Part shown: positions 25,154 to 33,916 of the stretch, one piece after another
Numbering within the stretch: position 1 is the stretch's first letter
Layout: each line of letters begins with the position of its first letter
Virus record (IMG/VR): IMGVR_UViG_3300009421_000008
Span: 1 to 44,283 of that record
Length of the DNA: 44,283 nucleotides
DNA from: a virus
Reading direction: 5' to 3' (one strand)
Program-made: the position numbers and the translations under genes
The notes under the pieces: model-generated
Seen by the model: only the letters and a program-made list of their open reading frames with translations
What the model was told of the DNA's origin: nothing
The model's database searches: none

Positions 25154-25603
25154 ATGGGTACAAAAACGGGGCCAGAATTGGCCCAAAAAAGCTTCATTTC
25201 CATCATTTTGTTGCTCTCTTCGCGCAACCAGAGGGCCTTGGGGCAACAGATAAGGCAACTAGGCAACTACTTAAAGATGGCAGAAAGTGAGCTTGAATCA
25301 CTTGTTTTGCCGCCTATAGAAGAGAAATCTCCACCAGGAAGGCCAGCTAAGAAGTACCTGGCCGGTTGGGGCTACACCCATGACGTAAAGGCCGCAAATG
25401 AGACTATGACCCTTTCAGAAATTTCTAAAATAGTCAATCACAGTCCCCCCGCCATAGCAGCTAAGATGTCAAGGCACAAAATGGGCATCGCTCAATACAT
25501 GATCCAAGAAAACAAAACTACTCCAGGATCCTACGGGCCTCCAGATGAGAGTGAAGCTATACCATTCACAGTGTTCAGAGATAATCCTAATGAGGCGGAG
25601 TGA
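25154..25603 (+). CDS. First early protein, possible HTH DNA-binding protein
   Basis: AAGGA N5 ATG at 25154. An alternative start is ATG 25277. The segment MTLSEISKIVNHSPPAIAAKMSRH looks helix-turn-helix-like. Confidence 0.45.
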   Translation: MGTKTGPELAQKSFISIILLLSSRNQRALGQQIRQLGNYLKMAESELESLVLPPIEEKSPPGRPAKKYLAGWGYTHDVKAANETMTLSEISKIVNHSPPAIAAKMSRHKMGIAQYMIQENKTTPGSYGPPDESEAIPFTVFRDNPNEAE

Positions 25604-25605
25604 TC

Positions 25606-27675
25606 ATGGCGCAGGGGCAGTACAGCCAGGCAGCAATAGAAAAGCTTGCGTCATCGGGGCTCACAGTAGCAGACGCTAAAAAGCTTCATATAGACTATCT
25701 CAGTAGGGAGAGAACGGCCAAAGAAAACAAATCGTACAAGCCACTAGAAAGCCTCCGCTTCGCTTACCTAGAGCCCAGTGGAAAGAAGATGGGTAATGGA
25801 GTCGCGTACACGCGCATCAGATACCTAGAGCAAGAAGCAGGATTTGCTCAGCAGACCAAGGGCAAGAAGTTATCCTACATGCAAGCAGCGGGCAGTGAGA
25901 CGTATGCCTACTATCCACCTAACCAAGATTGGAGCATTCTCAATGACCCAACCATACCACTCATCATTACGGAAGGCGAGCTCAAAGCGGCTAAGGCTTG
26001 TAAGGAAGGATTCCCAACGATTGCGGTTGGTGGCGTCTGGGCGTGGCGTAGTGTCAACCAAGGGCACACATGGCTACCATCACTCGATTTTCCGGTTTGG
26101 TATGGCAGGCACGTTTATATTTGTTTCGATGCCGACTACCATGGTAACGCCAACGTCTCCCGGGCTCTTATCGCCTTGGCAGAGGAATTGGTTGACAGAG
26201 GCGCTCACCCGCATTTAGCCATTACGCCCGAGGTGGCGGAGATAGAGAAGACCGGCATCGACGATTTCCTGACCTACGGGGGCAAGGATGCTAATGAGCA
26301 ATTTGCGCTCATGCTCCACGCGTCTCCTATGATAGGCTTGTGCAAACATCTAATTGCCATGAACAAGAAATACATCTACGTCCAAGACCCGGGCGTGATA
26401 GTCAACCTGAAGAGTCTGCATAAAATCACCCCATCTGCTTTCAAAGAGCATACAGAGTCCAAAGAGAAGATCTTAGAGCTCACGCTCACGCCCGAAGGAG
26501 AGACTCAAGCTAAACGAGCATCGGCAGCAGCTGCTTGGATACGCTGGCCTATGCGCAACGAGTGTGGCAGATTAACCTACCGGCCAGGGGCCGAGAAAAT
26601 AGTGGAGAAAGAAAATGAGCTCGAGCTCAATATATGGAAAGGTTGGGGTTGTGATTCTAGACGTGGATCAACTAAGCCGTTTGAACAACTTATTGAGCAT
26701 TTATTCACAGGAGCTAATAGAGCTACAAAAGAATGGTTCCTTGATTGGTGTGCTTATCCCATCCAGAATCCTGGATCAAAAATGTCTAGCGCAGCTGTTA
26801 TCCACGGAGTGCAACAGGGAACTGGAAAGTCAATGGTCGGTTATTCGCTCGGACGGATCTACGGGGATAATTTCAGCGAGATTGACCACGCAGACCTTCA
26901 GTCTCCTTTTAATGAATGGGCGGAAGGAAAACAGTTTGTCATGGGAGACGACGTTGCGGGAAGTAATAAGAGGGCTGACGCAGACAGATTGAAGAAGATG
27001 ATCACTCAGCAAGAGATTCGGATCAATGGCAAATACGTCCCTAGCTACGCCATACCAGACTGCGTCAACTACTTCTTTACGGCCAACCACTCAGATAGCT
27101 TCTATCTTGAGGACTCAGACCGCCGCTTCTTTATCCATGAGGTAACAGTACCCCCACTAGATGAGCAGTTCTACACAAACTATATGAACTGGTTGGAAAA
27201 TGGCGGGGCGGAAGCTCTCTTCTATTATTTCCAGCACAGAGACATCTCGAAATTTAACCCCAAGGCCCCTGCGCTGCGTACAGCTGCTAAGGACAGCATG
27301 ATCAGCTCGGTGCAATCCGACCATGGCGCATGGGTCAGGGAGCTTAGGGACGACCCAGATAGTATGCTGATGATAGGGTCTGCCAGAATTCAGCGTGACC
27401 TATTCACGGCGCAGGAGCTCTACGCTCTCTATAACCCAGACGATAGGCCGATGCGGGTCACTGCGGGCACTATAGGTAGAGAGCTTTCGAATGCAGGCTT
27501 TGCCAAGGCCAATGGGGGTTCTAAGCTATTCTGCAACATCGACGGTCGCAGGCGGACGCTTGTGTTTTATATAGTGCGCAATAAAGAGAAATGGTTAAGC
27601 GCGTCAACCAAGGAAATGACCGCGCACATTAACGCTGCTGAGAAGAAGTTCAAAGCGGCAACAGCGAGAGGGTGA
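25606..27675 (+). CDS. Primase-helicase: Toprim-like N-terminal domain + SF3 (D5/P4-type) helicase
   Basis: Toprim-like IPLIITEGELKAAK...VYICFDADY. Walker A GVQQGTGKS. Walker B-like FVMGDD. GGAG N5 ATG at 25606 (GTG 25600 is an alternative). Confidence 0.75.
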   Translation: MAQGQYSQAAIEKLASSGLTVADAKKLHIDYLSRERTAKENKSYKPLESLRFAYLEPSGKKMGNGVAYTRIRYLEQEAGFAQQTKGKKLSYMQAAGSETYAYYPPNQDWSILNDPTIPLIITEGELKAAKACKEGFPTIAVGGVWAWRSVNQGHTWLPSLDFPVWYGRHVYICFDADYHGNANVSRALIALAEELVDRGAHPHLAITPEVAEIEKTGIDDFLTYGGKDANEQFALMLHASPMIGLCKHLIAMNKKYIYVQDPGVIVNLKSLHKITPSAFKEHTESKEKILELTLTPEGETQAKRASAAAAWIRWPMRNECGRLTYRPGAEKIVEKENELELNIWKGWGCDSRRGSTKPFEQLIEHLFTGANRATKEWFLDWCAYPIQNPGSKMSSAAVIHGVQQGTGKSMVGYSLGRIYGDNFSEIDHADLQSPFNEWAEGKQFVMGDDVAGSNKRADADRLKKMITQQEIRINGKYVPSYAIPDCVNYFFTANHSDSFYLEDSDRRFFIHEVTVPPLDEQFYTNYMNWLENGGAEALFYYFQHRDISKFNPKAPALRTAAKDSMISSVQSDHGAWVRELRDDPDSMLMIGSARIQRDLFTAQELYALYNPDDRPMRVTAGTIGRELSNAGFAKANGGSKLFCNIDGRRRTLVFYIVRNKEKWLSASTKEMTAHINAAEKKFKAATARG

Positions 27676-27676
27676 T

Positions 27677-28159
27677 ATGGAAAAATCTGCTTATCTGAGT
27701 GCCGACGGTAAATATAGATACAGTCTTTGGCGAAGGTGGGGAGAGACTCACAGAAATGTAATGTTTATAGGATTGAATCCTTCTACAGCCGATGCGCAAA
27801 ATGACGACCCTACTATCAGGCGTTGTGTAGGGTACGCAAAAGAATGGGGGTTCGATGCTTTGTCAATGACAAATCTTTATGCCTACAGATCGCCGTTTCC
27901 AGAAGGATTGTACGGCCCAGAAGATCCTGTTGGCTTCCATAATGATTTTGTGTTGAGAACTCAAGCTAAAAGAGCCGACCTTATTATTGCTGCTTGGGGC
28001 TCAATGGCAAAAATGTTTGGCAATAGACATGAACAGGTGGCTTCTATGATACCAAATTTACACTGTCTTAAATTGAATAAAGACGGAGCACCGGCGCACC
28101 CCCTGTACCTAAAAAAAGATTTAACGCCGTTTTTGTTTGCGGCTCCGGTTAGAGGGTGA
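27677..28159 (+). CDS. DUF1643-family protein
   Basis: YRYSLWRRW...MFIGLNPSTADAQNDDPTIRRCVGYAKEWGFDALSMTNLYAYRS matches my recollection of the DUF1643 signature. Confidence 0.65.
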   Translation: MEKSAYLSADGKYRYSLWRRWGETHRNVMFIGLNPSTADAQNDDPTIRRCVGYAKEWGFDALSMTNLYAYRSPFPEGLYGPEDPVGFHNDFVLRTQAKRADLIIAAWGSMAKMFGNRHEQVASMIPNLHCLKLNKDGAPAHPLYLKKDLTPFLFAAPVRG

Positions 28160-28371: not shown

Positions 28372-28800
28372 ATGAACGAAAGAGGTACAGGACGCACAAC
28401 TAGAATGCTGCAAGACGCGGTGGCTAGGTGTTTTGAAACTCAACGACCAGTTGCGGTGGTCATCCACAATAAACAATTTTTTGGGTACTGCGCGAGTCTT
28501 GTGAATGACGTCGTTCTTAGAGGGTCGGAAAACACCATTATAGATCCTAGGCGCCAACGGATTAGTTTTGGAGACAACAGAATTCTTTTCTTTAGCGTCG
28601 AGGAAATTGTGAATTCTCATAGACTGAGAGGGCTTGAATTGGGTGGGCTGTTCATCGACCATTCAGTATCAACTATAGTGCCCAACCATTCTGCGCTGAT
28701 TCGTCTTGAGCAAGAAATAGAAGTTGCCTTTGCTGGAATTCGGGGGCAACAAAATTGTAAGCGGCGGAAAACCCGAATAAACCGTTGTACAAGTAAATAA
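28372..28800 (+). CDS. Hypothetical protein with a degenerate P-loop-like motif
   Basis: AAGGAG N7 ATG. Starts MNERGTGRTTRML and has a hydrophobic-Asp stretch GGLFIDH. Confidence 0.5.
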   Translation: MNERGTGRTTRMLQDAVARCFETQRPVAVVIHNKQFFGYCASLVNDVVLRGSENTIIDPRRQRISFGDNRILFFSVEEIVNSHRLRGLELGGLFIDHSVSTIVPNHSALIRLEQEIEVAFAGIRGQQNCKRRKTRINRCTSK

Positions 28801-28814
28801 CTAGTTAGTATAAT
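28785..28814 (+). promoter_or_regulatory. Sigma70-type promoter with embedded palindrome (TTGTAC N18 TATAAT)
   Basis: ttgtac-aagtaaataactagttag-tataat. The spacer carries AATAACTAGTTAG (13/14 of the palindrome). Confidence 0.6.
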
Positions 28815-28863
28815 TTTGAAAGCCTATTCAGAGGCTGTTACCCAACCAATGGAGAAATACCAA

Positions 28864-29103
28864 ATGAGCAAATTGCTTGAAGATCCGAAAGTCGCCGCGC
28901 TTGTTGACAAATCTGTTACAAAAGCAAAGAAAGAAGCTGCAAAAGCTGCTGCCGACGTTGTTCAAAACTTGCTTGATAATTTGAAGGCCGATGGCGAAGT
29001 GCCCAGCGGCAAAGTTGCTTATGCTTCTACTCTACGCGACCTCAAATCTGGCATCAAAGCCGTCGGCACCGCGGATCTTTCCAACCCGCCGGCATCTAAG
29101 TAA
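28864..29103 (+). CDS. Hypothetical small protein (79 aa)
   Basis: GGAGA N7 ATG at 28864, downstream of the predicted transcription start. The track's TTG at 28816 abuts the -10 box, upstream of the expected transcription start. Confidence 0.5.
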   Translation: MSKLLEDPKVAALVDKSVTKAKKEAAKAAADVVQNLLDNLKADGEVPSGKVAYASTLRDLKSGIKAVGTADLSNPPASK

Positions 29104-29135
29104 CTAAGTAAGCAGCTACGATTGCGACAAGTACT

Positions 29136-29160
29136 CTAGGCCCTTAGCGGCCTAGTTTTC
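29136..29160 (+). terminator. Weak rho-independent terminator
   Basis: ctaggcc-cttagc-ggcctag followed by ttttc. Confidence 0.4.
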
Positions 29161-29174
29161 ATTGAGGAGCAAAA

Positions 29175-29678
29175 ATGAACGAGCACCCACTATTCCCCAT
29201 CTTCTTAGAGGCCATAGCGCAATGCACAAGGGGCAAGGGAGACAGGCACGGAGGAGAGCGCGTCGACTTCATGAAGCAACCATGGAACCACTATGGCGAG
29301 TTGCACGGACGTGGGTTTCTAACTGGCCAAGCCGCCAAGAAGCTTGAGGAAGCGGCATCAATTAAATACGACGAGGAATTTGTCAATGAAGCGCTTGGAG
29401 CAATCGTCTACATCGGGATGGCTATCATCCACGAGCGTAACCGCATCACAGATATTGACCGCATTGGCAGTATTGAGACTGAAACCTTCGGCAACCTTGA
29501 TACAGGTCAGAGCGGCAAAGAGACGATTGTCTCAGCAGTTGCATCCGGACAAATCGATCCAACCGTCATCAACCCACCAATCGGAAGGCGCATCGACGCA
29601 AGAACAGTCACCGATGCCGACCTTCGACGAGGTCCAGAAAAGCGCAGCCCTTCTTATCGAGCTACTCGAAACACCTAA
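29175..29678 (+). CDS. All-alpha MazG/DUF1599-like protein (N-terminal about 92 aa); the C-terminal tail overlaps the J-domain gene
   Basis: GAGGAG N6 ATG. GKGDRHGG...LTGQAAKKLEEAAS...NEALGAIVYIGMAIIHE resembles four-helix NTP-pyrophosphohydrolase-like families. The last roughly 76 aa look low-complexity. Confidence 0.45.
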   Translation: MNEHPLFPIFLEAIAQCTRGKGDRHGGERVDFMKQPWNHYGELHGRGFLTGQAAKKLEEAASIKYDEEFVNEALGAIVYIGMAIIHERNRITDIDRIGSIETETFGNLDTGQSGKETIVSAVASGQIDPTVINPPIGRRIDARTVTDADLRRGPEKRSPSYRATRNT

Positions 29679-29802
29679 AGAATGCCCGTCTTGTGACGGT
29701 AAGGGGAGGATAGAAGTGCGCCGCGGATTCAGCACTACTTACTGGCGGTGCGGCGACTGTGGCGGCCAGAGAACTAAGAGGAGAATTAAATGCGAGCTGT
29801 AA
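29386..29802 (+). CDS. J-domain + DnaJ-type zinc-finger protein ('mini-DnaJ', about 138 aa)
   Basis: GAGGA N8 ATG at 29386. LAVLRLKPSATLIQVRAAKRRLSQQLHPDK aligns without gaps to E. coli DnaJ [30 protein letters not shown] (HPD at 29542-29550). Helix-III-like FDEVQKSAALLIELL. Two CxxCxGxG-type motifs, CPSCDGKG and CGDCGGQR. Confidence 0.6.
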   Translation: MKRLEQSSTSGWLSSTSVTASQILTALAVLRLKPSATLIQVRAAKRRLSQQLHPDKSIQPSSTHQSEGASTQEQSPMPTFDEVQKSAALLIELLETPKECPSCDGKGRIEVRRGFSTTYWRCGDCGGQRTKRRIKCEL

Positions 29803-30200
29803 CGCCCAAGAGATCTAAGCTCAGGATGCCCAAAACCATTGGAGCATGTGCTGACCTACTGTATAAACTCAGAGATGAGAAGGCAGCAGCTAAGAAAGTG
29901 GTCGATGCTATCGAAGCTGATGAGAAGATGGTCAAGGAGTACATTATCCAGACATTGCCCAAGTCCAATGCTGAGGGCGTGACTGGCAAAGTTGCTAATG
30001 TAGCCGTAGTCCGCAAGGAAGTGCCTCAGGTCAAGGACTGGGATAAATTCTATGCACACGTCAAACGGACCAACGCGTGGGATCTTATGCAGCGCCGGCT
30101 ATCTGACTCTGCTGTTAAAGAGCGGTGGGAGGCCGGTAAGAAGATTCCGGGCGTAGAAGTGTTCACGGCTGTGTCTGTTAGTTGCACAAAAGCAAAATAA
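29790..30200 (+). CDS. Hypothetical protein (136 aa)
   Basis: AAGAGGAG N6 ATG. I recognised no motif. Confidence 0.5.
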   Translation: MRAVTPKRSKLRMPKTIGACADLLYKLRDEKAAAKKVVDAIEADEKMVKEYIIQTLPKSNAEGVTGKVANVAVVRKEVPQVKDWDKFYAHVKRTNAWDLMQRRLSDSAVKERWEAGKKIPGVEVFTAVSVSCTKAK

Positions 30201-30202
30201 CG

Positions 30203-30232
30203 GTGTACATCTCAAATAACTAGTTATATTAT
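30203..30232 (+). promoter_or_regulatory. Sigma70-type promoter with embedded palindrome (GTGTAC N18 TATTAT)
   Basis: gtgtac-atctcaaataactagtta-tattat. It is nearly identical over about 45 bp to the element at 36417. Confidence 0.6.
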
Positions 30233-30261
30233 CTAGATTCTTAATCCAAGGAGCAGTAACC

Positions 30262-31095
30262 ATGGCAGCAAAGAAACCAGGTACAGAGGTAATCAATTGG
30301 CAAGAGCGGCTTGAAAAAGAAGCCAACATTGCGGCCGAGCAAGAGAAGAATATCGGCAGCGGCGCTTTCTTCAGCCTTAAAGGCGGCATCCTTAGCTGGA
30401 ACGGAGAGGCGCTGCTTGAAAACAAGATGGCAGTTGTCATCTGCGACTCGGTCCTTGAGAACGTGTTTTACGAAGAAGAATACGACCCAGATGAGCCGGC
30501 CCCTCCGACATGCTACGCTTTTGGCCGCGACGAGGACACGATCGCCCCGTTTGAGAAAGTAGTCAAGGATGGCAATGCTCAAGCCGACCAATGTGACGGT
30601 TGCCAGTTCAATGAGTGGGGCTCAGCGGACAAGGGGCGCGGAAAAGCGTGTCGTAACGGGCGGCGCTTGGCACTAATCTCAGCCGGGCAGTTTGACAAGA
30701 AAACCGGAGAATTTGAGCTAGAGAGTAACAAGGCTCTTCAGACTGCGGCACTCGGCTTTATGAAACTGTCCCCAACCAACATTAAGGCTTACGCGACCTA
30801 CGTCAAGCAGCTGAGTTCCATTGCCAAGCGGCCGCCATGGGCCATGGTGACAGAAATCAGTGTTGTTCCGGATCCTAAGAATCAATTCCGGGTTATTTTT
30901 GAAGCATTACAGGATGTGCCAGATGAATTACTTGAAACTGTTTCCGCCCGCCATGACGAAGCCAAAGCCTCAATCGAATTTCCGTACGCAGACTTTGATG
31001 ATGAACCAGAAGCTGCGTCAAGAGGAAGGTCGCCTAAAGGCCGGAAAGCTCCTGCTAAAAAAGCGGCGGCAAAATCACGCGGAAGGAAATACTGA
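30262..31095 (+). CDS. Putative ssDNA-binding / annealing protein with a Cys cluster
   Basis: 277 aa. QCDGCQFNEWGS...GKACRNGRRLAL. The acidic-aromatic segment FPYADFDDEPE is reminiscent of SSB C-tails and is followed by a basic KGRKAPAKKAAAKSRGRKY tail. The functional call is tentative. Confidence 0.35.
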   Translation: MAAKKPGTEVINWQERLEKEANIAAEQEKNIGSGAFFSLKGGILSWNGEALLENKMAVVICDSVLENVFYEEEYDPDEPAPPTCYAFGRDEDTIAPFEKVVKDGNAQADQCDGCQFNEWGSADKGRGKACRNGRRLALISAGQFDKKTGEFELESNKALQTAALGFMKLSPTNIKAYATYVKQLSSIAKRPPWAMVTEISVVPDPKNQFRVIFEALQDVPDELLETVSARHDEAKASIEFPYADFDDEPEAASRGRSPKGRKAPAKKAAAKSRGRKY

Positions 31096-31811: not shown

Positions 31812-32018
31812 ATGGAGACTAAAATGACAACCATTTTGATAATTGCAATCGTTTCAATTTTACTGGGCGGTCTTAACGGGTTGAACCGTATGTGGCTTAA
31901 ACCGGGCGCAATCACCAATGACGTGAAAGCTTACTATATTTTTGGTGTTGGCGGCGTAACGGCTATAGTCTTGTTTTGCGCTTTGACTCTCTTCGCTGTA
32001 CTGTGGGGCTTCATATGA
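31812..32018 (+). CDS. Small membrane protein (2 TM segments)
   Basis: TILIIAIVSILLGGLNGL and YYIFGVGGVTAIVLFCALTLFAVLWGFI. ATGA overlap with the polymerase start. Confidence 0.5.
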   Translation: METKMTTILIIAIVSILLGGLNGLNRMWLKPGAITNDVKAYYIFGVGGVTAIVLFCALTLFAVLWGFI

Positions 32019-33916
32019 GCCATCCGGCTCCAGTCACCATTGACTTTGAGACACTGGGCATTCAGAAGCGGCCGCTGTATCCGCCGTGTCCGGTCGGCGT
32101 GTCTATTAAATACCCGGGCAAGCCTGCTAAGTATTACGGGTGGGGCCATCCGACTGGCAACAACTGTACTTGGGCGCAGGGCTACAAGGCACTAAGCAAG
32201 GCGTGGAAGCATCATGATGGGCTACTCTTTCAGAACGGAAAATTCGACGTCGACGTGGCAACCACCCACATGGGTGTTGAGATGCCGAACTGGAGACGAA
32301 TCCATGACACAATGTTCCTTCTCTTTCTTGATTCTCCACACGAGAATAGTCTCAGCCTTAAGCCCTCCGCTGAACGGCTTCTCGATATGCCGCCAGAGGA
32401 ACAAGATGCCGTGGGTGAGTGGCTCATTGAGAATCAGCCCATTACTGGTATCAAGATCACCAGAGGAAAGGGGGGGCAACACTATTTCGGTAGGTACCTC
32501 GCCTACGCGCCGGGCTCCCTTGTCGGAGTGTACGCTGATGGTGATGTTATACGGACTGAAAAGCTCTTCAATCTACTGTATGCCAAGATTGTTGAACAAA
32601 ATATGGTACCGGCGTATGACCGCGAACGGGAACTCATGCCGTGCCTGTTGGACATGGAGAGACAGGGACTTCCCGTTGACCACAAGAAGCTCGATTCAGA
32701 CGTTAAGAAGTATGCCACTTGGTTGGAAACCATTGACAGTTGGATCTATAAGCGAATCAAATGCGAAATCAATCTCAACAGCGGGGAACAGCTTGTTGAA
32801 GCAATGGTTGCATCAGGAAGAGCTGATCCGGAACTCATACCGCTAACACCGACCGGTAAGTATCAAACAAACAAGGATGCGTTGCTACTGGGAGTGACAG
32901 ACAAAACGCTTCTAGCGGTGCTTAAGTATCGCACTCAGCTCAACACATGCATGAGCACCTTCATGAAGCCGTGGCTTGAGATAGCCGATATGTCTGGCGG
33001 TCTTATCTACACCACGTGGAATCAGATTAAGTCGGCTCTAGGCGGTGGCAGCGTGGGGACAAAGTCGGGCAGGCTGTCATCTACACCGAACTTTCAAAAT
33101 ATCCCAAATGATTTTCAGCCCATTTTTGCTCACGAGCAGAAAGGTCTGGCTAAATGCCCATGGAAAGACCTGCCGCATTTACCATCAGTACGCCAATACA
33201 TTGTTCCGTTCCCTGGGCACATGTTCATTGACCGGGATTACTCTCAGCAAGAGCCGCGCATTCTGGCAGACTTTGACGGAGATGCTTTGCTAGAGCAGTA
33301 TCTTGAGAATCCTTGGCTTGATTTCCATGACAACGCGCAAGAGAAGCTTGCAGAGCGCGGCAAGATATACGATCGCAAACCGGTGAAAAACACAAACCTA
33401 GGCCTCATCTACGGCATGGGTGTGGGTACTCTTGCTGAGCGCAATGATATGGAAGTGATCGAAGCCAAGAGTTTGAAGAATGCTATTCTTGAAATGTATC
33501 CCGGCCTTAAGGAAATGTATAAGGAGATGAAGCGCCGAGCCAAGGCCGGCGAGCCCATCAGAACATGGGGTGGTAGAGTCTACTACTGCGAAGAGCCGAA
33601 GCTAGTCCGCGGCAGGCTGATGCACTTCGATTACAAGATGGTGAACATACTTATTCAAGGGTCAGGGGCTGACTGCACTAAGGAAGCGATTATCAGGTTC
33701 TATAAGTTCAAGCAGCCTGATTGGAAGCTTGTGCTTAACGTGCATGATCAGCTGACTGTCTCCATTGAGCCGAGGTGGTTGGGCCGTGCTATGCCGACCC
33801 TTAAGAAGGCAATGGAAGAACTTGATTTCGACGTGCCCATGTTAACTGAGGGCGCTGTGTCGAGAACGAATTGGGGTGAATTAATTGACTACGACAAGAA
33901 AGGAGTAATGCTATGA
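32015..33916 (+). CDS. DNA polymerase, family A (T7-like, with 3'-5' exonuclease domain)
   Basis: ExoI IDFETLG. Motif A DRDYSQQEPRILA. Motif B RKPVKNTNLGLIYGMG. Motif C NVHDQL. ATG 32015 overlaps the upstream stop. Confidence 0.9.
   Translation: MSHPAPVTIDFETLGIQKRPLYPPCPVGVSIKYPGKPAKYYGWGHPTGNNCTWAQGYKALSKAWKHHDGLLFQNGKFDVDVATTHMGVEMPNWRRIHDTMFLLFLDSPHENSLSLKPSAERLLDMPPEEQDAVGEWLIENQPITGIKITRGKGGQHYFGRYLAYAPGSLVGVYADGDVIRTEKLFNLLYAKIVEQNMVPAYDRERELMPCLLDMERQGLPVDHKKLDSDVKKYATWLETIDSWIYKRIKCEINLNSGEQLVEAMVASGRADPELIPLTPTGKYQTNKDALLLGVTDKTLLAVLKYRTQLNTCMSTFMKPWLEIADMSGGLIYTTWNQIKSALGGGSVGTKSGRLSSTPNFQNIPNDFQPIFAHEQKGLAKCPWKDLPHLPSVRQYIVPFPGHMFIDRDYSQQEPRILADFDGDALLEQYLENPWLDFHDNAQEKLAERGKIYDRKPVKNTNLGLIYGMGVGTLAERNDMEVIEAKSLKNAILEMYPGLKEMYKEMKRRAKAGEPIRTWGGRVYYCEEPKLVRGRLMHFDYKMVNILIQGSGADCTKEAIIRFYKFKQPDWKLVLNVHDQLTVSIEPRWLGRAMPTLKKAMEELDFDVPMLTEGAVSRTNWGELIDYDKKGVML

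Follow-up and report, generated by a model that had tools for sequence, protein, structure and literature searches.

A candidate mini-DnaJ gene in an out-of-frame overlap with a conserved small gene of a 44-kb tailed phage

The only functionally characterized phage J-domain protein is Rki (gene 057w) of the T4-like phage RB43, the C-terminal region of which resembles no known protein (PMC3486835). A sequence-only reading of the DNA described here had regarded J-domain proteins as rare in phages, but this was overstated, as a review reports 137 phage genomes carrying J-domain protein genes; nearly all of the surveyed proteins have no second domain (PMC13254874). Among cellular proteins, AtcJ of Shewanella is very small and joins a J-domain to a 21-amino-acid C-terminal extension that binds the client (PMC6715715), and bacterial DnaJ, a class A Hsp40, has 376 amino acids. 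Overprinted genes, in which the same DNA is read in two frames, are described in phiX174, in the out-of-frame remodelled 'ORgene' families of Escherichia coli (PMC8788219), and among viral overlaps (PMC8227390), with a newer frame that is short and disordered and an older frame that is conserved.

The window (the whole stretch of DNA that was analyzed, 44,283 nucleotides) is from a 44-kb tailed phage and carries a mini-DnaJ-like co-chaperone gene (for a J-domain and a single zinc finger) within an out-of-frame overlap with an upstream gene, ORF1. ORF1 (frame 0) extends from 29175 to 29678 and codes for 167 amino acids; the ORF in the +1 frame extends from 29344 to 29802 (152 amino acids, or 138 from the ATG at 29386). 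Both frames are open for 293 nt from this ATG to the ORF1 stop at 29678, in agreement with an initial estimate of about 290 nt. In one relative, L001 (from another sequencing run, SRR24908277), the DNA is diverged by ~25 to 35%, the two frames stand in the +1 relation seen here, and the tail is again open. The features are listed below, with the basis for each in parentheses.

29136-29163, + strand: terminator-like hairpin, CTAGGCC..GGCCTAG then TTTT, just 5' of ORF1 (consensus scan, pattern match only)
29164-29177, + strand: ORF1 Shine-Dalgarno (SD) sequence GAGGAG at 29164-29169 and ATG at 29175 (sequence)
29175-29450, + strand: ORF1 core, residues 1-92, of a small helical phage protein family (homologues, L001 comparison, AF2)
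29373-29388, + strand: likely mini-DnaJ ribosome-binding site GAGGA at 29373-29377 and ATG at 29386, inside the ORF1 core (sequence)
29386-29451, + strand: mini-DnaJ N-terminal leader, 22 codons, unconstrained, over the last conserved helix of ORF1 (L001, AF2, family alignment)
29386-29678, + strand: two-frame overlap, ORF1 in frame 0 and mini-DnaJ in frame +1 (same layout in L001)
29451-29678, + strand: ORF1 C-terminal extension in frame 0, 75 codons plus TAA at 29676-29678 (open frame over the J gene)
29452-29550, + strand: J-domain helices I and II and HPD motif, HPD at 29542-29550 (alignment, AF2)
29551-29622, + strand: lineage-specific S/T/Q-rich insertion after HPDK (alignments)
29623-29670, + strand: J-domain helix III, FDEVQKSAALLIELLE (AF2 helix, alignments)
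29683-29772, + strand: single DnaJ-type zinc centre, with CPSCDGKG, RGFST, and CGDCGGQR in that order (motifs, phmmer, Foldseek)
29790-29802, + strand: mini-DnaJ gene end (TAA at 29800-29802) over the ATG at 29790 of the next gene, a 13-nt overlap (sequence)

Motif and profile evidence supports the +1 ORF as a predicted J-domain plus DnaJ-type zinc-finger protein. The HPD, CPSCDGKG, and CGDCGGQR motifs initially claimed for this frame are present, at 29542 to 29550, from 29683, and up to 29772, respectively. The suggested Pfam check is borne out by the family and not by the window ORF alone, which scores 21.3 to 21.5 bits (E = 2.5-3e-4) against PF00226 (DnaJ), below the gathering threshold of 27.8, and 22.7 to 22.9 bits against PF00684 (DnaJ_CXXCXGXG), below the cut-off of 32.7. 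The PF00226 match covers profile positions 4 to 39 only, because the insertion interrupts the alignment. With both single-sequence scores below threshold, the identification relies on family-level evidence. All 35 family members match PF00226 at E <= 0.01 (best, 5.7e-18) and 33 match PF00684, and the family profile matches solved J-domains in the PDB (E = 2.3e-13) as well as the Cys-rich domain of DnaJ (8.5e-10). A leave-one-out family profile scores 88.8 bits with the window ORF, where its alignment begins at 29458, and 45.9 bits with that of L001. HPD occurs without variation in 35 of 35 members and also in L001, and four Cys residues of the zinc centre are invariant in the family alignment.

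This family of ~90- to 100-amino-acid 'J + zinc finger' proteins (PHROG 14336, 9210, and 13942; UOF79446.1, a 'putative chaperone protein' of MW202621) has the same architecture and carries the PHROGs label 'unknown function'. In several phages the gene likewise lies 3' of an ORF1-family gene. The window and L001 proteins differ from the rest of the family by the extra N-terminal leader and a 14- to 17-amino-acid insertion after HPDK, and they are the only members found inside an out-of-frame overlap. The 152-amino-acid window ORF has no match at E <= 0.01 in a word-index protein search, because the J frame is uncalled in the assemblies, and tblastn against GenBank phages returns no match for the window protein and one full-length match only (MW202621) for a typical family member.

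The AF2 model of mini-DnaJ (pLDDT 83) has three helices where they are expected. Those at residues 20 to 29 and 38 to 52 have a pLDDT of 96, and the predicted helix III (residues 80 to 95, pLDDT 89 to 97) lines up with helix III both in DnaJA1 and across the family; helix IV is missing from the model. The stretch with helices I and II and HPD aligns without gaps to the J-domain of CbpA, and the best Foldseek matches are DnaJ J-domains (probability ~1.0, E ~0.07 to 0.3, TM ~0.3 to 0.6) and 1exk, the modest E and TM values arising because the model combines a disordered loop with two small domains. The insertion adds ~14 to 17 residues beyond the family length, has a pLDDT of 61 to 79, and is three codons shorter in L001; lying beside the loop that contacts DnaK, it could interfere with function. 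Only two CxxCxGxG motifs are present, compared with the four motifs and two zinc centres of PF00684, and the final G of the second is replaced by R. This candidate zinc centre matches 1exk, the Cys-rich domain of E. coli DnaJ, in phmmer (E = 3.3e-4) and in Foldseek (rmsd 1.5 Å over 34 residues), with the phmmer alignment falling on the CPTCHGSG...CPHCQGRG segment, which corresponds to zinc centre II of DnaJ.

Mini-DnaJ resembles bacterial DnaJ (E. coli 1xbl, 1bq0, and 1exk) in predicted helices I to III, HPD, a basic helix II, and the zinc-finger segment to which it aligns, but at about 115 to 138 amino acids it has two of the four CxxCxGxG motifs and a single zinc centre, with neither a G/F region nor the substrate-binding C-terminal domains (PF01556). 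The last two absences and a length of only 138 amino acids set it outside class A (type I) DnaJ/Hsp40 proteins, and by convention it is a class C J-domain protein. It shares with Rki an origin in a phage genome, a place in class C (type III), and the HPD motif, with host DnaK as the expected target. The description of Rki sets the two apart, since no zinc finger is described for it whereas mini-DnaJ has a DnaJ-type zinc centre and a loop insertion and is without helix IV, and the sigma-32 stabilization mechanism of Rki cannot be carried over to mini-DnaJ. In RB43, sequences like the DnaJ zinc domain occur in small ORFs of their own, whereas a single mini-DnaJ chain carries both the zinc finger and the J-domain. 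AtcJ is similarly small with a short element C-terminal to the J-domain, and the NCBIfam ActJ model matches mini-DnaJ weakly (E = 1.4e-4); AtcJ, however, is cellular and has its short extension where the phage-encoded protein has a zinc finger.

Mini-DnaJ probably starts at ATG 29386, as judged from the local sequence. The GAGGA N8 ATG arrangement noted at the outset is present as described, with 8 nt between GAGGA at 29373 to 29377 and the ATG, and its anti-SD duplex (-5.9 kcal/mol) is in the range of this phage's other gene starts. Start codon and SD positions differ in L001, which has ATGs at the equivalents of 29368, 29374, and 29431. TTG codons at 29455, 29464, and 29473, to which family N termini map, were considered as alternatives and rejected as preferred starts, because no SD precedes them (duplex, +0.4 kcal/mol) and L001 lacks start codons at these places. 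The leader downstream of ATG 29386 is missing from most family members and has an AF2 pLDDT of 63 to 71; its +1 frame is 45% identical to that of L001, and 12 non-synonymous codon changes stand against a single synonymous one.

ORF1 begins at ATG 29175 with an anti-SD duplex of -8.5 kcal/mol, and the JGI annotation, which starts at M33, truncates the protein, because homologues keep an N-terminal HPLFP motif. Across the 628 homologues of its family, which occurs in phage replication modules, the motif HGRGFLTGQAAKK.EEA does not vary. The core is 81 to 91% identical to L001 at the amino acid level, with changes at frame-0 third positions, and is modeled by AF2 as a helical bundle (pLDDT 89 to 97 across most of the core). 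ORF1 has no match in Pfam, in NCBIfam, in a PDB profile search, or in Foldseek with the confident AF2 model. The family core ends at 'HER' (29430 to 29438) and J homology begins at 29449 to 29458, in accord with an earlier placement of the domain junction, and homologues terminate fewer than 10 amino acids past 'HER' in 55 of 73 homologous loci. Homologues of ORF1 and mini-J are distinct neighboring genes in 6 of 72 IMG/VR loci, often with intervening genes.

Comparison of the window with L001, the frame-conservation check recommended initially, places a switch near 29451. Frame 0 is conserved only 5' of this position and the J frame only 3' of it, where amino acid identity is 65% in the J frame and 24% in frame 0; constraint at the sequence level is thus on one frame only at each position. 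The region of J-domain helices I and II is likewise 65% identical and has 15 synonymous and 12 non-synonymous codon changes, and this pattern points clearly to purifying selection on the J frame. The ORF1 tail has 2 synonymous and 26 non-synonymous changes. Third positions diverge as fast in the J frame (56%) as in the ORF1 core (54%), and there is therefore no sequence-specific constraint on the frame-0 tail.

We favor, with moderate confidence, the interpretation that two separately translated genes share 29386 to 29678, with an ORF1 extension overprinted on the J gene. Both frames are open and independently startable, at ATG 29175 and ATG 29386, each preceded by an SD-like sequence. ORF1 would be a highly conserved small helical protein in which the usual stop past 'HER' is missing in this lineage, so that translation continues for 75 further codons, mostly disordered, over the J gene; the second gene would code for the leader, J-domain, loop insertion, and zinc centre from its probable start. 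The tail would be translated and held open by selection, with its length, its composition, or ribosome transit being what matters rather than its sequence. The resulting configuration is unlike the overprinted genes cited above, in that the newer part is a putative C-terminal extension of a very conserved gene lying over an older J-domain gene. Among the three explanations proposed from the sequence (dual coding, recoding or a frameshift fusion, and an assembly indel), dual coding fits best, and this may be a true case of it.

The alternative that survives best, although we consider it unlikely, is that the ORF1 tail is a non-functional run-on after stop loss (for example, by a deletion compacting the junction), such that the J gene is the only selected content past ~29451 and openness is luck. 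The low tail identity and predominance of non-synonymous changes are consistent with this, as are the family's usual termination soon after 'HER', the different ORF1 stop positions in the window and L001, and the predicted disorder past about residue 108 in the AF2 model. Chance openness of the 75-codon tail is improbable, however. The tail has no stops against an expectation of 0.078 per codon, and synonymous resampling of the J gene gives a probability of 0.005 that frame 0 is open for at least 75 codons in the window, a value that is post hoc because the locus was chosen for its overlap. The corresponding value for the L001 tail is 0.009, and with shared codons held fixed the two become 0.012 and 0.042; just 8 of 54 tail codons are common to the two sequences, yet both are open. 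The resampling null is calibrated (760 stops observed versus 737 expected), no open 76-codon window occurs in that relative frame in 9,730 codons of 24 other window genes, and seven non-overlapped J homologues have 4 to 13 stops there, with longest open runs of 21 to 38 codons.

Composition also argues against a run-on. Within the overlap, T makes up 8% and purines 71% of J-gene third positions, compared with 27% and 47% genome-wide, and the composition reverts 3' of the ORF1 stop; this T depletion exceeds what stop avoidance needs, as none of 206 open resamples has six or fewer T. The tail has a coding-like codon composition, including at first positions, and its codon log-likelihood ratio (+0.085) is above those of all 1,595 null windows when computed with stops ignored, since stop-codon penalties otherwise dominated the score. 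The openness and composition of the tail thus look selected and its sequence does not, although the selection tests are low-powered because only two diverged sequences, the window and L001, carry the overlap. Searches for further carriers with the J protein in IMG/VR, a J alignment in JGI metagenomes, a degenerate nucleotide pattern coding for NEALGAIVYIGM in contigs from metagenomes and viruses, and an ORF1 alignment in GTDB genomes found none, so that in these collections only the two sequences carry the arrangement.

A more ambitious form of dual coding, which we regard as doubtful, would have the overlap functionally join a co-chaperone to its partner: a DnaK-recruiting mini-DnaJ and a selected, disordered extension of the ultra-conserved ORF1, both encoded by the same ~230 to 290 nt, would be coupled in expression or stoichiometry, ORF1 or its tail would be a client or regulator of mini-DnaJ/DnaK, and the unfused ORF1-to-mini-J order elsewhere would be ancestral.

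Programmed +1 (or -2) ribosomal frameshifting at ~29440 to 29460, yielding an ORF1core-J-zinc-finger polypeptide beside the unshifted ORF1 product, is very improbable. It would account for the selected path changing frame exactly at the boundary between ORF1 core and J-domain, for a +1 frame that is open from 29323 in both genomes, and for the unconserved position of the J start and SD. But neither a homopolymer run nor an X XXY YYZ heptamer is present in 29400 to 29480 or its L001 equivalent; the junction sequence is unconserved, with no shift-prone motif, in-frame stop, or rare-codon pause common to the two, and its predicted RNA structure is not significant (z = -1.5). No protein among 273 retrieved homologues carries both HPD and the ORF1 motif, six other phages keep the two genes apart, a good SD and ATG are present at 29386, and a frameshift leaves unexplained the 75 further open frame-0 codons. 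The fusion option accordingly finds no support. A sequencing or assembly indel that shifted the frame between genes really adjacent or fused in frame, for which there is nothing beyond a priori possibility, is effectively refuted by an independently assembled 44,237-bp ENA SPAdes contig (12.7x coverage) that is 100% identical over 6,504 bp, by the exact 167-amino-acid ORF1 on four contigs, and by the same frame structure in diverged L001; the overlap is genuine and not an assembly artifact.

Mini-DnaJ would be predicted to engage host DnaK through HPD and its basic helix II and could steer it to a phage-relevant client. Remodeling of a replication complex is plausible because the gene sits between those for a primase (25600 to 27675) and a DNA polymerase (31976 to 33916). 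Gene callers chose the long ORF1 and passed over the J frame in three contigs, of which two are assemblies of this phage, and mini-DnaJ is absent from protein databases for this reason; overlap-blind annotation can thus conceal real phage host-takeover genes. The family, as yet unstudied, packs a J-domain and a single DnaJ zinc centre into ~95 amino acids and is encoded in replication modules of phages, and this minimal unit would offer a compact tool for asking what a DnaJ zinc centre adds to DnaK action. The ORF1 tail, with its clear frame-by-frame split of constraint, is a tractable candidate for overprinting. We note that the next gene, starting at 29790, has an SD duplex of -9.1 kcal/mol, and that the hairpin at 29136 to 29163 may mark the start of a unit comprising ORF1, the J gene, and this next gene.

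The window is a complete-looking tailed-phage contig of 44.3 kb, and the features that bear on its overlapping genes are as follows.

Minus strand: structural genes (terminase, portal, and major head protein)
Plus strand: replication module (primase, 25600-27675; DNA polymerase, 31976-33916; exonuclease; helicase)
29175-29678, plus strand: ORF1, frame 0, ATG to TAA, 167 aa, inside the replication module
29344-29802, plus strand: open +1 frame
29373-29377, plus strand: GAGGA, 8 nt ahead of an ATG at 29386

The two frames are simultaneously open over 293 nt, and the pairing of GAGGA with the anti-Shine-Dalgarno sequence (-5.9 kcal/mol) falls among those of other starts in this phage (-5.3 to -9.1). 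The +1 ORF ends 13 nt inside the next gene, which starts at 29790.

Searched singly, the +1 ORF has only sub-threshold Pfam matches, both indicating DnaJ (PF00226, 21.3 bits versus a cut-off of 27.8; PF00684, 22.7 bits versus 32.7). When 1.84 billion representatives were searched exhaustively with phmmer, 36 proteins reached E <= 1e-3 (best 3.9e-8), nearly all of 86 to 138 aa and aligned to query residues ~40 to 145; in the alignment of this mini-J family the HPD motif (29542-29550 in the window) and four cysteines are invariant (consensus ..LGL...AT..EVKAA.R.LA...HPD.GG....F..L..AY......P..CP.C.G.G......GF......C..C.G.G). The aligned family matches PF00226 in 35/35 members (best E = 5.7e-18) and PF00684 in 33/35, and its profile matches solved J-domains (E = 2.3e-13) and the Cys-rich domain of Escherichia coli DnaJ, 1exk (E = 8.5e-10). 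A family profile that omits the window sequence, though still partly circular in that the window was the seed for gathering the family, scores 88.8 bits with the window ORF from residue 39 (29458) onward and 45.9 bits with a partial homologue in L001, a diverged relative. The window zinc finger aligns with the 1exk segment CPTCHGSG...CPHCQGRG (E = 3.3e-4), which we take to be zinc centre II, and helices I-II and the HPD can be aligned gap-free with the CbpA J-domain. An AlphaFold2 model (pLDDT 83) has helices at residues 20-29, 38-52, and 80-95 and a two-hairpin zinc ribbon, with Thermus thermophilus DnaJ J-domains and 1exk (rmsd 1.5 Å) as the best Foldseek matches. The +1 ORF is thus predicted to encode a mini-DnaJ; the family profile and the 1exk and CbpA alignments bear out the J-domain and zinc finger proposed in the sequence-only reading, whose two open frames are likewise confirmed. 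Unlike a canonical J-domain it lacks helix IV, and its second Cys motif ends in R, not G. Immediately after HPDK, at the site of a short GGxxxx loop in the rest of the family, the window and L001 have a disordered S/T/Q-rich insertion of 14 to 17 residues (29551-29622), which falls entirely within the overlap with the ORF1 tail.

ORF1 is a member of an extensive phage family of at least 628 clusters, whose strikingly invariant core (HPL..., GKG.RHGG, QPW.HY, and HGRGFLTGQAAKK.EEA) ends at '..GMAI.HE.'; the family has no match in Pfam, NCBIfam, PDB sequences, or Foldseek. The protein ends fewer than 10 residues past 'HER', the last residues of the core (29430-29438), in 55 of 73 loci, and the 79 residues that follow it in the window are exceptional. 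AlphaFold2 models residues 1 to 105 with confidence as a helical bundle and predicts disorder past about 108. The family domain is usually C-terminal, beneath variable N-terminal extensions. Some members (L015 3848-4630; P0119) truly possess a further C-terminal domain, ~120 residues long, with the motif NHPDW.FE..PK.HDW.Y.GF and a Cys-rich end, the last 25 nt of that L015 gene overlapping a mini-J gene start, and a subgroup (L004-L007, L021; P0035, P0096, P0083, P0105, P0113) closes with a Cys/His tail, RRCSHIDSSGNRC.G..GH.GRHSSK, that is basic and conserved and may be a zinc knuckle. A mini-DnaJ gene lies 0.1 to 1 kb downstream of the ORF1 homologue on the same strand in 6 of 72 IMG/VR loci.

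The only close relative, L001, is a 970-bp Logan contig from SRR24908277 whose ORF1 is 67% identical to that of the window (86% in the core). After the core, its frame 0 runs on for 59 residues beyond 'HER' (55 codons from the 29451 equivalent), and its +1 frame reads ...ALRVLGLKPSAMLADVKRARRQLSQQLHPDKGG...PTFDEVQKAADFL...CP before running off the contig end.

Divergence by frame, window versus L001
29175-29384: frame 0, 81% aa identity, 38/54 differences at frame-0 third positions; +1 frame, 39% aa identity
29385-29450: frame 0, 91% aa identity; +1 frame, 45% aa identity, 1 synonymous and 12 non-synonymous codon changes
29451-29553: frame 0, 24% aa identity, 2 synonymous and 26 non-synonymous; +1 frame, 65% aa identity, 15 synonymous and 12 non-synonymous

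Constraint on the sequence thus passes from one frame to the other at about 29451, the very point at which the ORF1 core gives way to the J-domain, with frame 0 conserved before this point and the J frame after it. The J/zinc-finger gene is under selection and its overlap with ORF1 is real; the unconstrained partner appears to be the J leader before the switch (29386-29451) and the ORF1 tail beyond it (29451-29678).

The ORF1 tail could be a mere run-on, as its actual sequence appears to be under no constraint and J third positions diverge as fast as those of the ORF1 core (56% versus 54%). Against this, an open frame here is rare. The same relative frame of 24 other window genes has 0.078 stops per codon and zero open 76-codon windows among 9,730 codons, and the stop-count null is calibrated, because 760 stops were observed versus 737 expected under synonymous resampling. 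Synonymous-codon resampling left frame 0 open for at least 75 codons in 0.5% of trials for the window J gene and for at least 55 codons in 0.9% for L001, or 1.2% and 4.2%, respectively, with the 8/54 codons still common to both genomes held fixed. In seven J homologues without the overlap, that frame is interrupted by 4 to 13 stops and its longest open stretch spans 21 to 38 codons. J third positions are also skewed.

J third-position composition
Window, within overlap: T 8% (6/75), purine 71%
Window, after ORF1 stop: T 20%, purine 49%
L001, within overlap: T 15%, purine 65%
L001, after ORF1 stop: T 43%, purine 35%
Genome-wide: T 27%, purine 47%

The composition in the overlap resembles that of a coding first position (overlap versus downstream, Fisher tests, P = 0.02-0.08), and none of 206 resamples staying open by chance had so few T. 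The stop-ignored codon LLR of the tail (+0.085 in the window, +0.058 in L001) exceeds all 1,595 null windows (mean -0.33, maximum 0.037). Together these suggest, from two genomes only and not conclusively, that the openness of the tail is maintained.

Frameshifting that joins the ORF1 core to the J-domain would fit the lack of positional conservation of the J start, since L001 has ATGs at the equivalents of 29368, 29374, and 29431 with a poorly spaced Shine-Dalgarno sequence. This option of the sequence-only reading fares poorly, however: in neither the window nor L001 does the junction offer a slippery heptamer, a homopolymer, an in-frame stop, or a conserved pause codon, and the local RNA structure is nothing out of the ordinary (z = -1.5). 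The ORF1 motif and HPD never occur together among 273 retrieved homologues, six IMG/VR phages carry the ORF1 homologue and mini-J as separate genes 0.1 to 1 kb apart, sometimes with genes between, and the long open frame 0 would stay unexplained. An assembly indel, also raised there, is excluded by the presence of the exact 167-aa ORF1 on four contigs of 20 to 50 kb, by an ENA SPAdes contig (44,237 bp, 12.7x coverage) that is identical to the window across 6,504 bp, and by the same layout in L001.

A separately translated mini-DnaJ would start at ATG 29386. As all J-domain proteins do, it would engage host DnaK, here through basic helix II (VRAAKRRLSQQL) and HPD, and so set off ATP hydrolysis, and its zinc hairpin may contact a client or help to lock DnaK. 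The position of the gene between those for primase and polymerase, together with what DnaJ/DnaK and the J-domain of SV40 T-antigen do in replication of lambda and SV40, respectively (PMC13254874), makes remodelling of the replication complex a reasonable guess; alternatively, the protein may manipulate the heat-shock response as Rki does (PMC3486835). Rki is, as that reading held, the one characterised phage J-domain protein (PMC3486835), but such proteins are not especially rare in phages, a review citing their genes in 137 phage genomes (49 unique sequences, 48 without a second known domain; PMC13254874). A tblastn search with a mini-J family member matched J-domains in 44 GenBank phage records; a single one of these was a full-length J plus zinc-finger match, annotated 'putative chaperone protein', and the family corresponds to PHROGs 14336, 9210, and 13942, all labelled 'unknown function'. 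The mini-DnaJ is an uncharacterised architecture, set here within an overlap that is a candidate for dual coding. Both long overlaps between reading frames and gene ends remodelled out of frame are already well established (PMC8227390, PMC8788219).

We note that automatic gene calls, compared at window 29175-29802, L001 462-970, and a further locus (L075 3001-3628), take the long frame-0 ORF (JGI, 135 aa from M33; ENA, 167 aa; Logan, 147 aa) and never the J frame, which is why the mini-DnaJ is absent from a 15-billion-protein collection. The 29790-30200 gene matches phrog_13900, 'minor head protein' (E = 5e-21), an odd label given its replication-module location; profiles of DUF7307 (Pam3 gp33-like) and of Mu Gam-like proteins match it weakly. 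Within the searched 28800-30300, it alone resembles a GenBank phage (MW202621) at the DNA level. A terminator-like hairpin (29136-29163; CTAGGCC-loop-GGCCTAG, then TTTT) lies between the 28816-29103 gene and ORF1, directly 5' of the ORF1 Shine-Dalgarno sequence, and 27677-28159, after primase, codes for a DUF1643 (PF07799)/phrog_3230 protein with a homologue also near the mini-J gene of L023.
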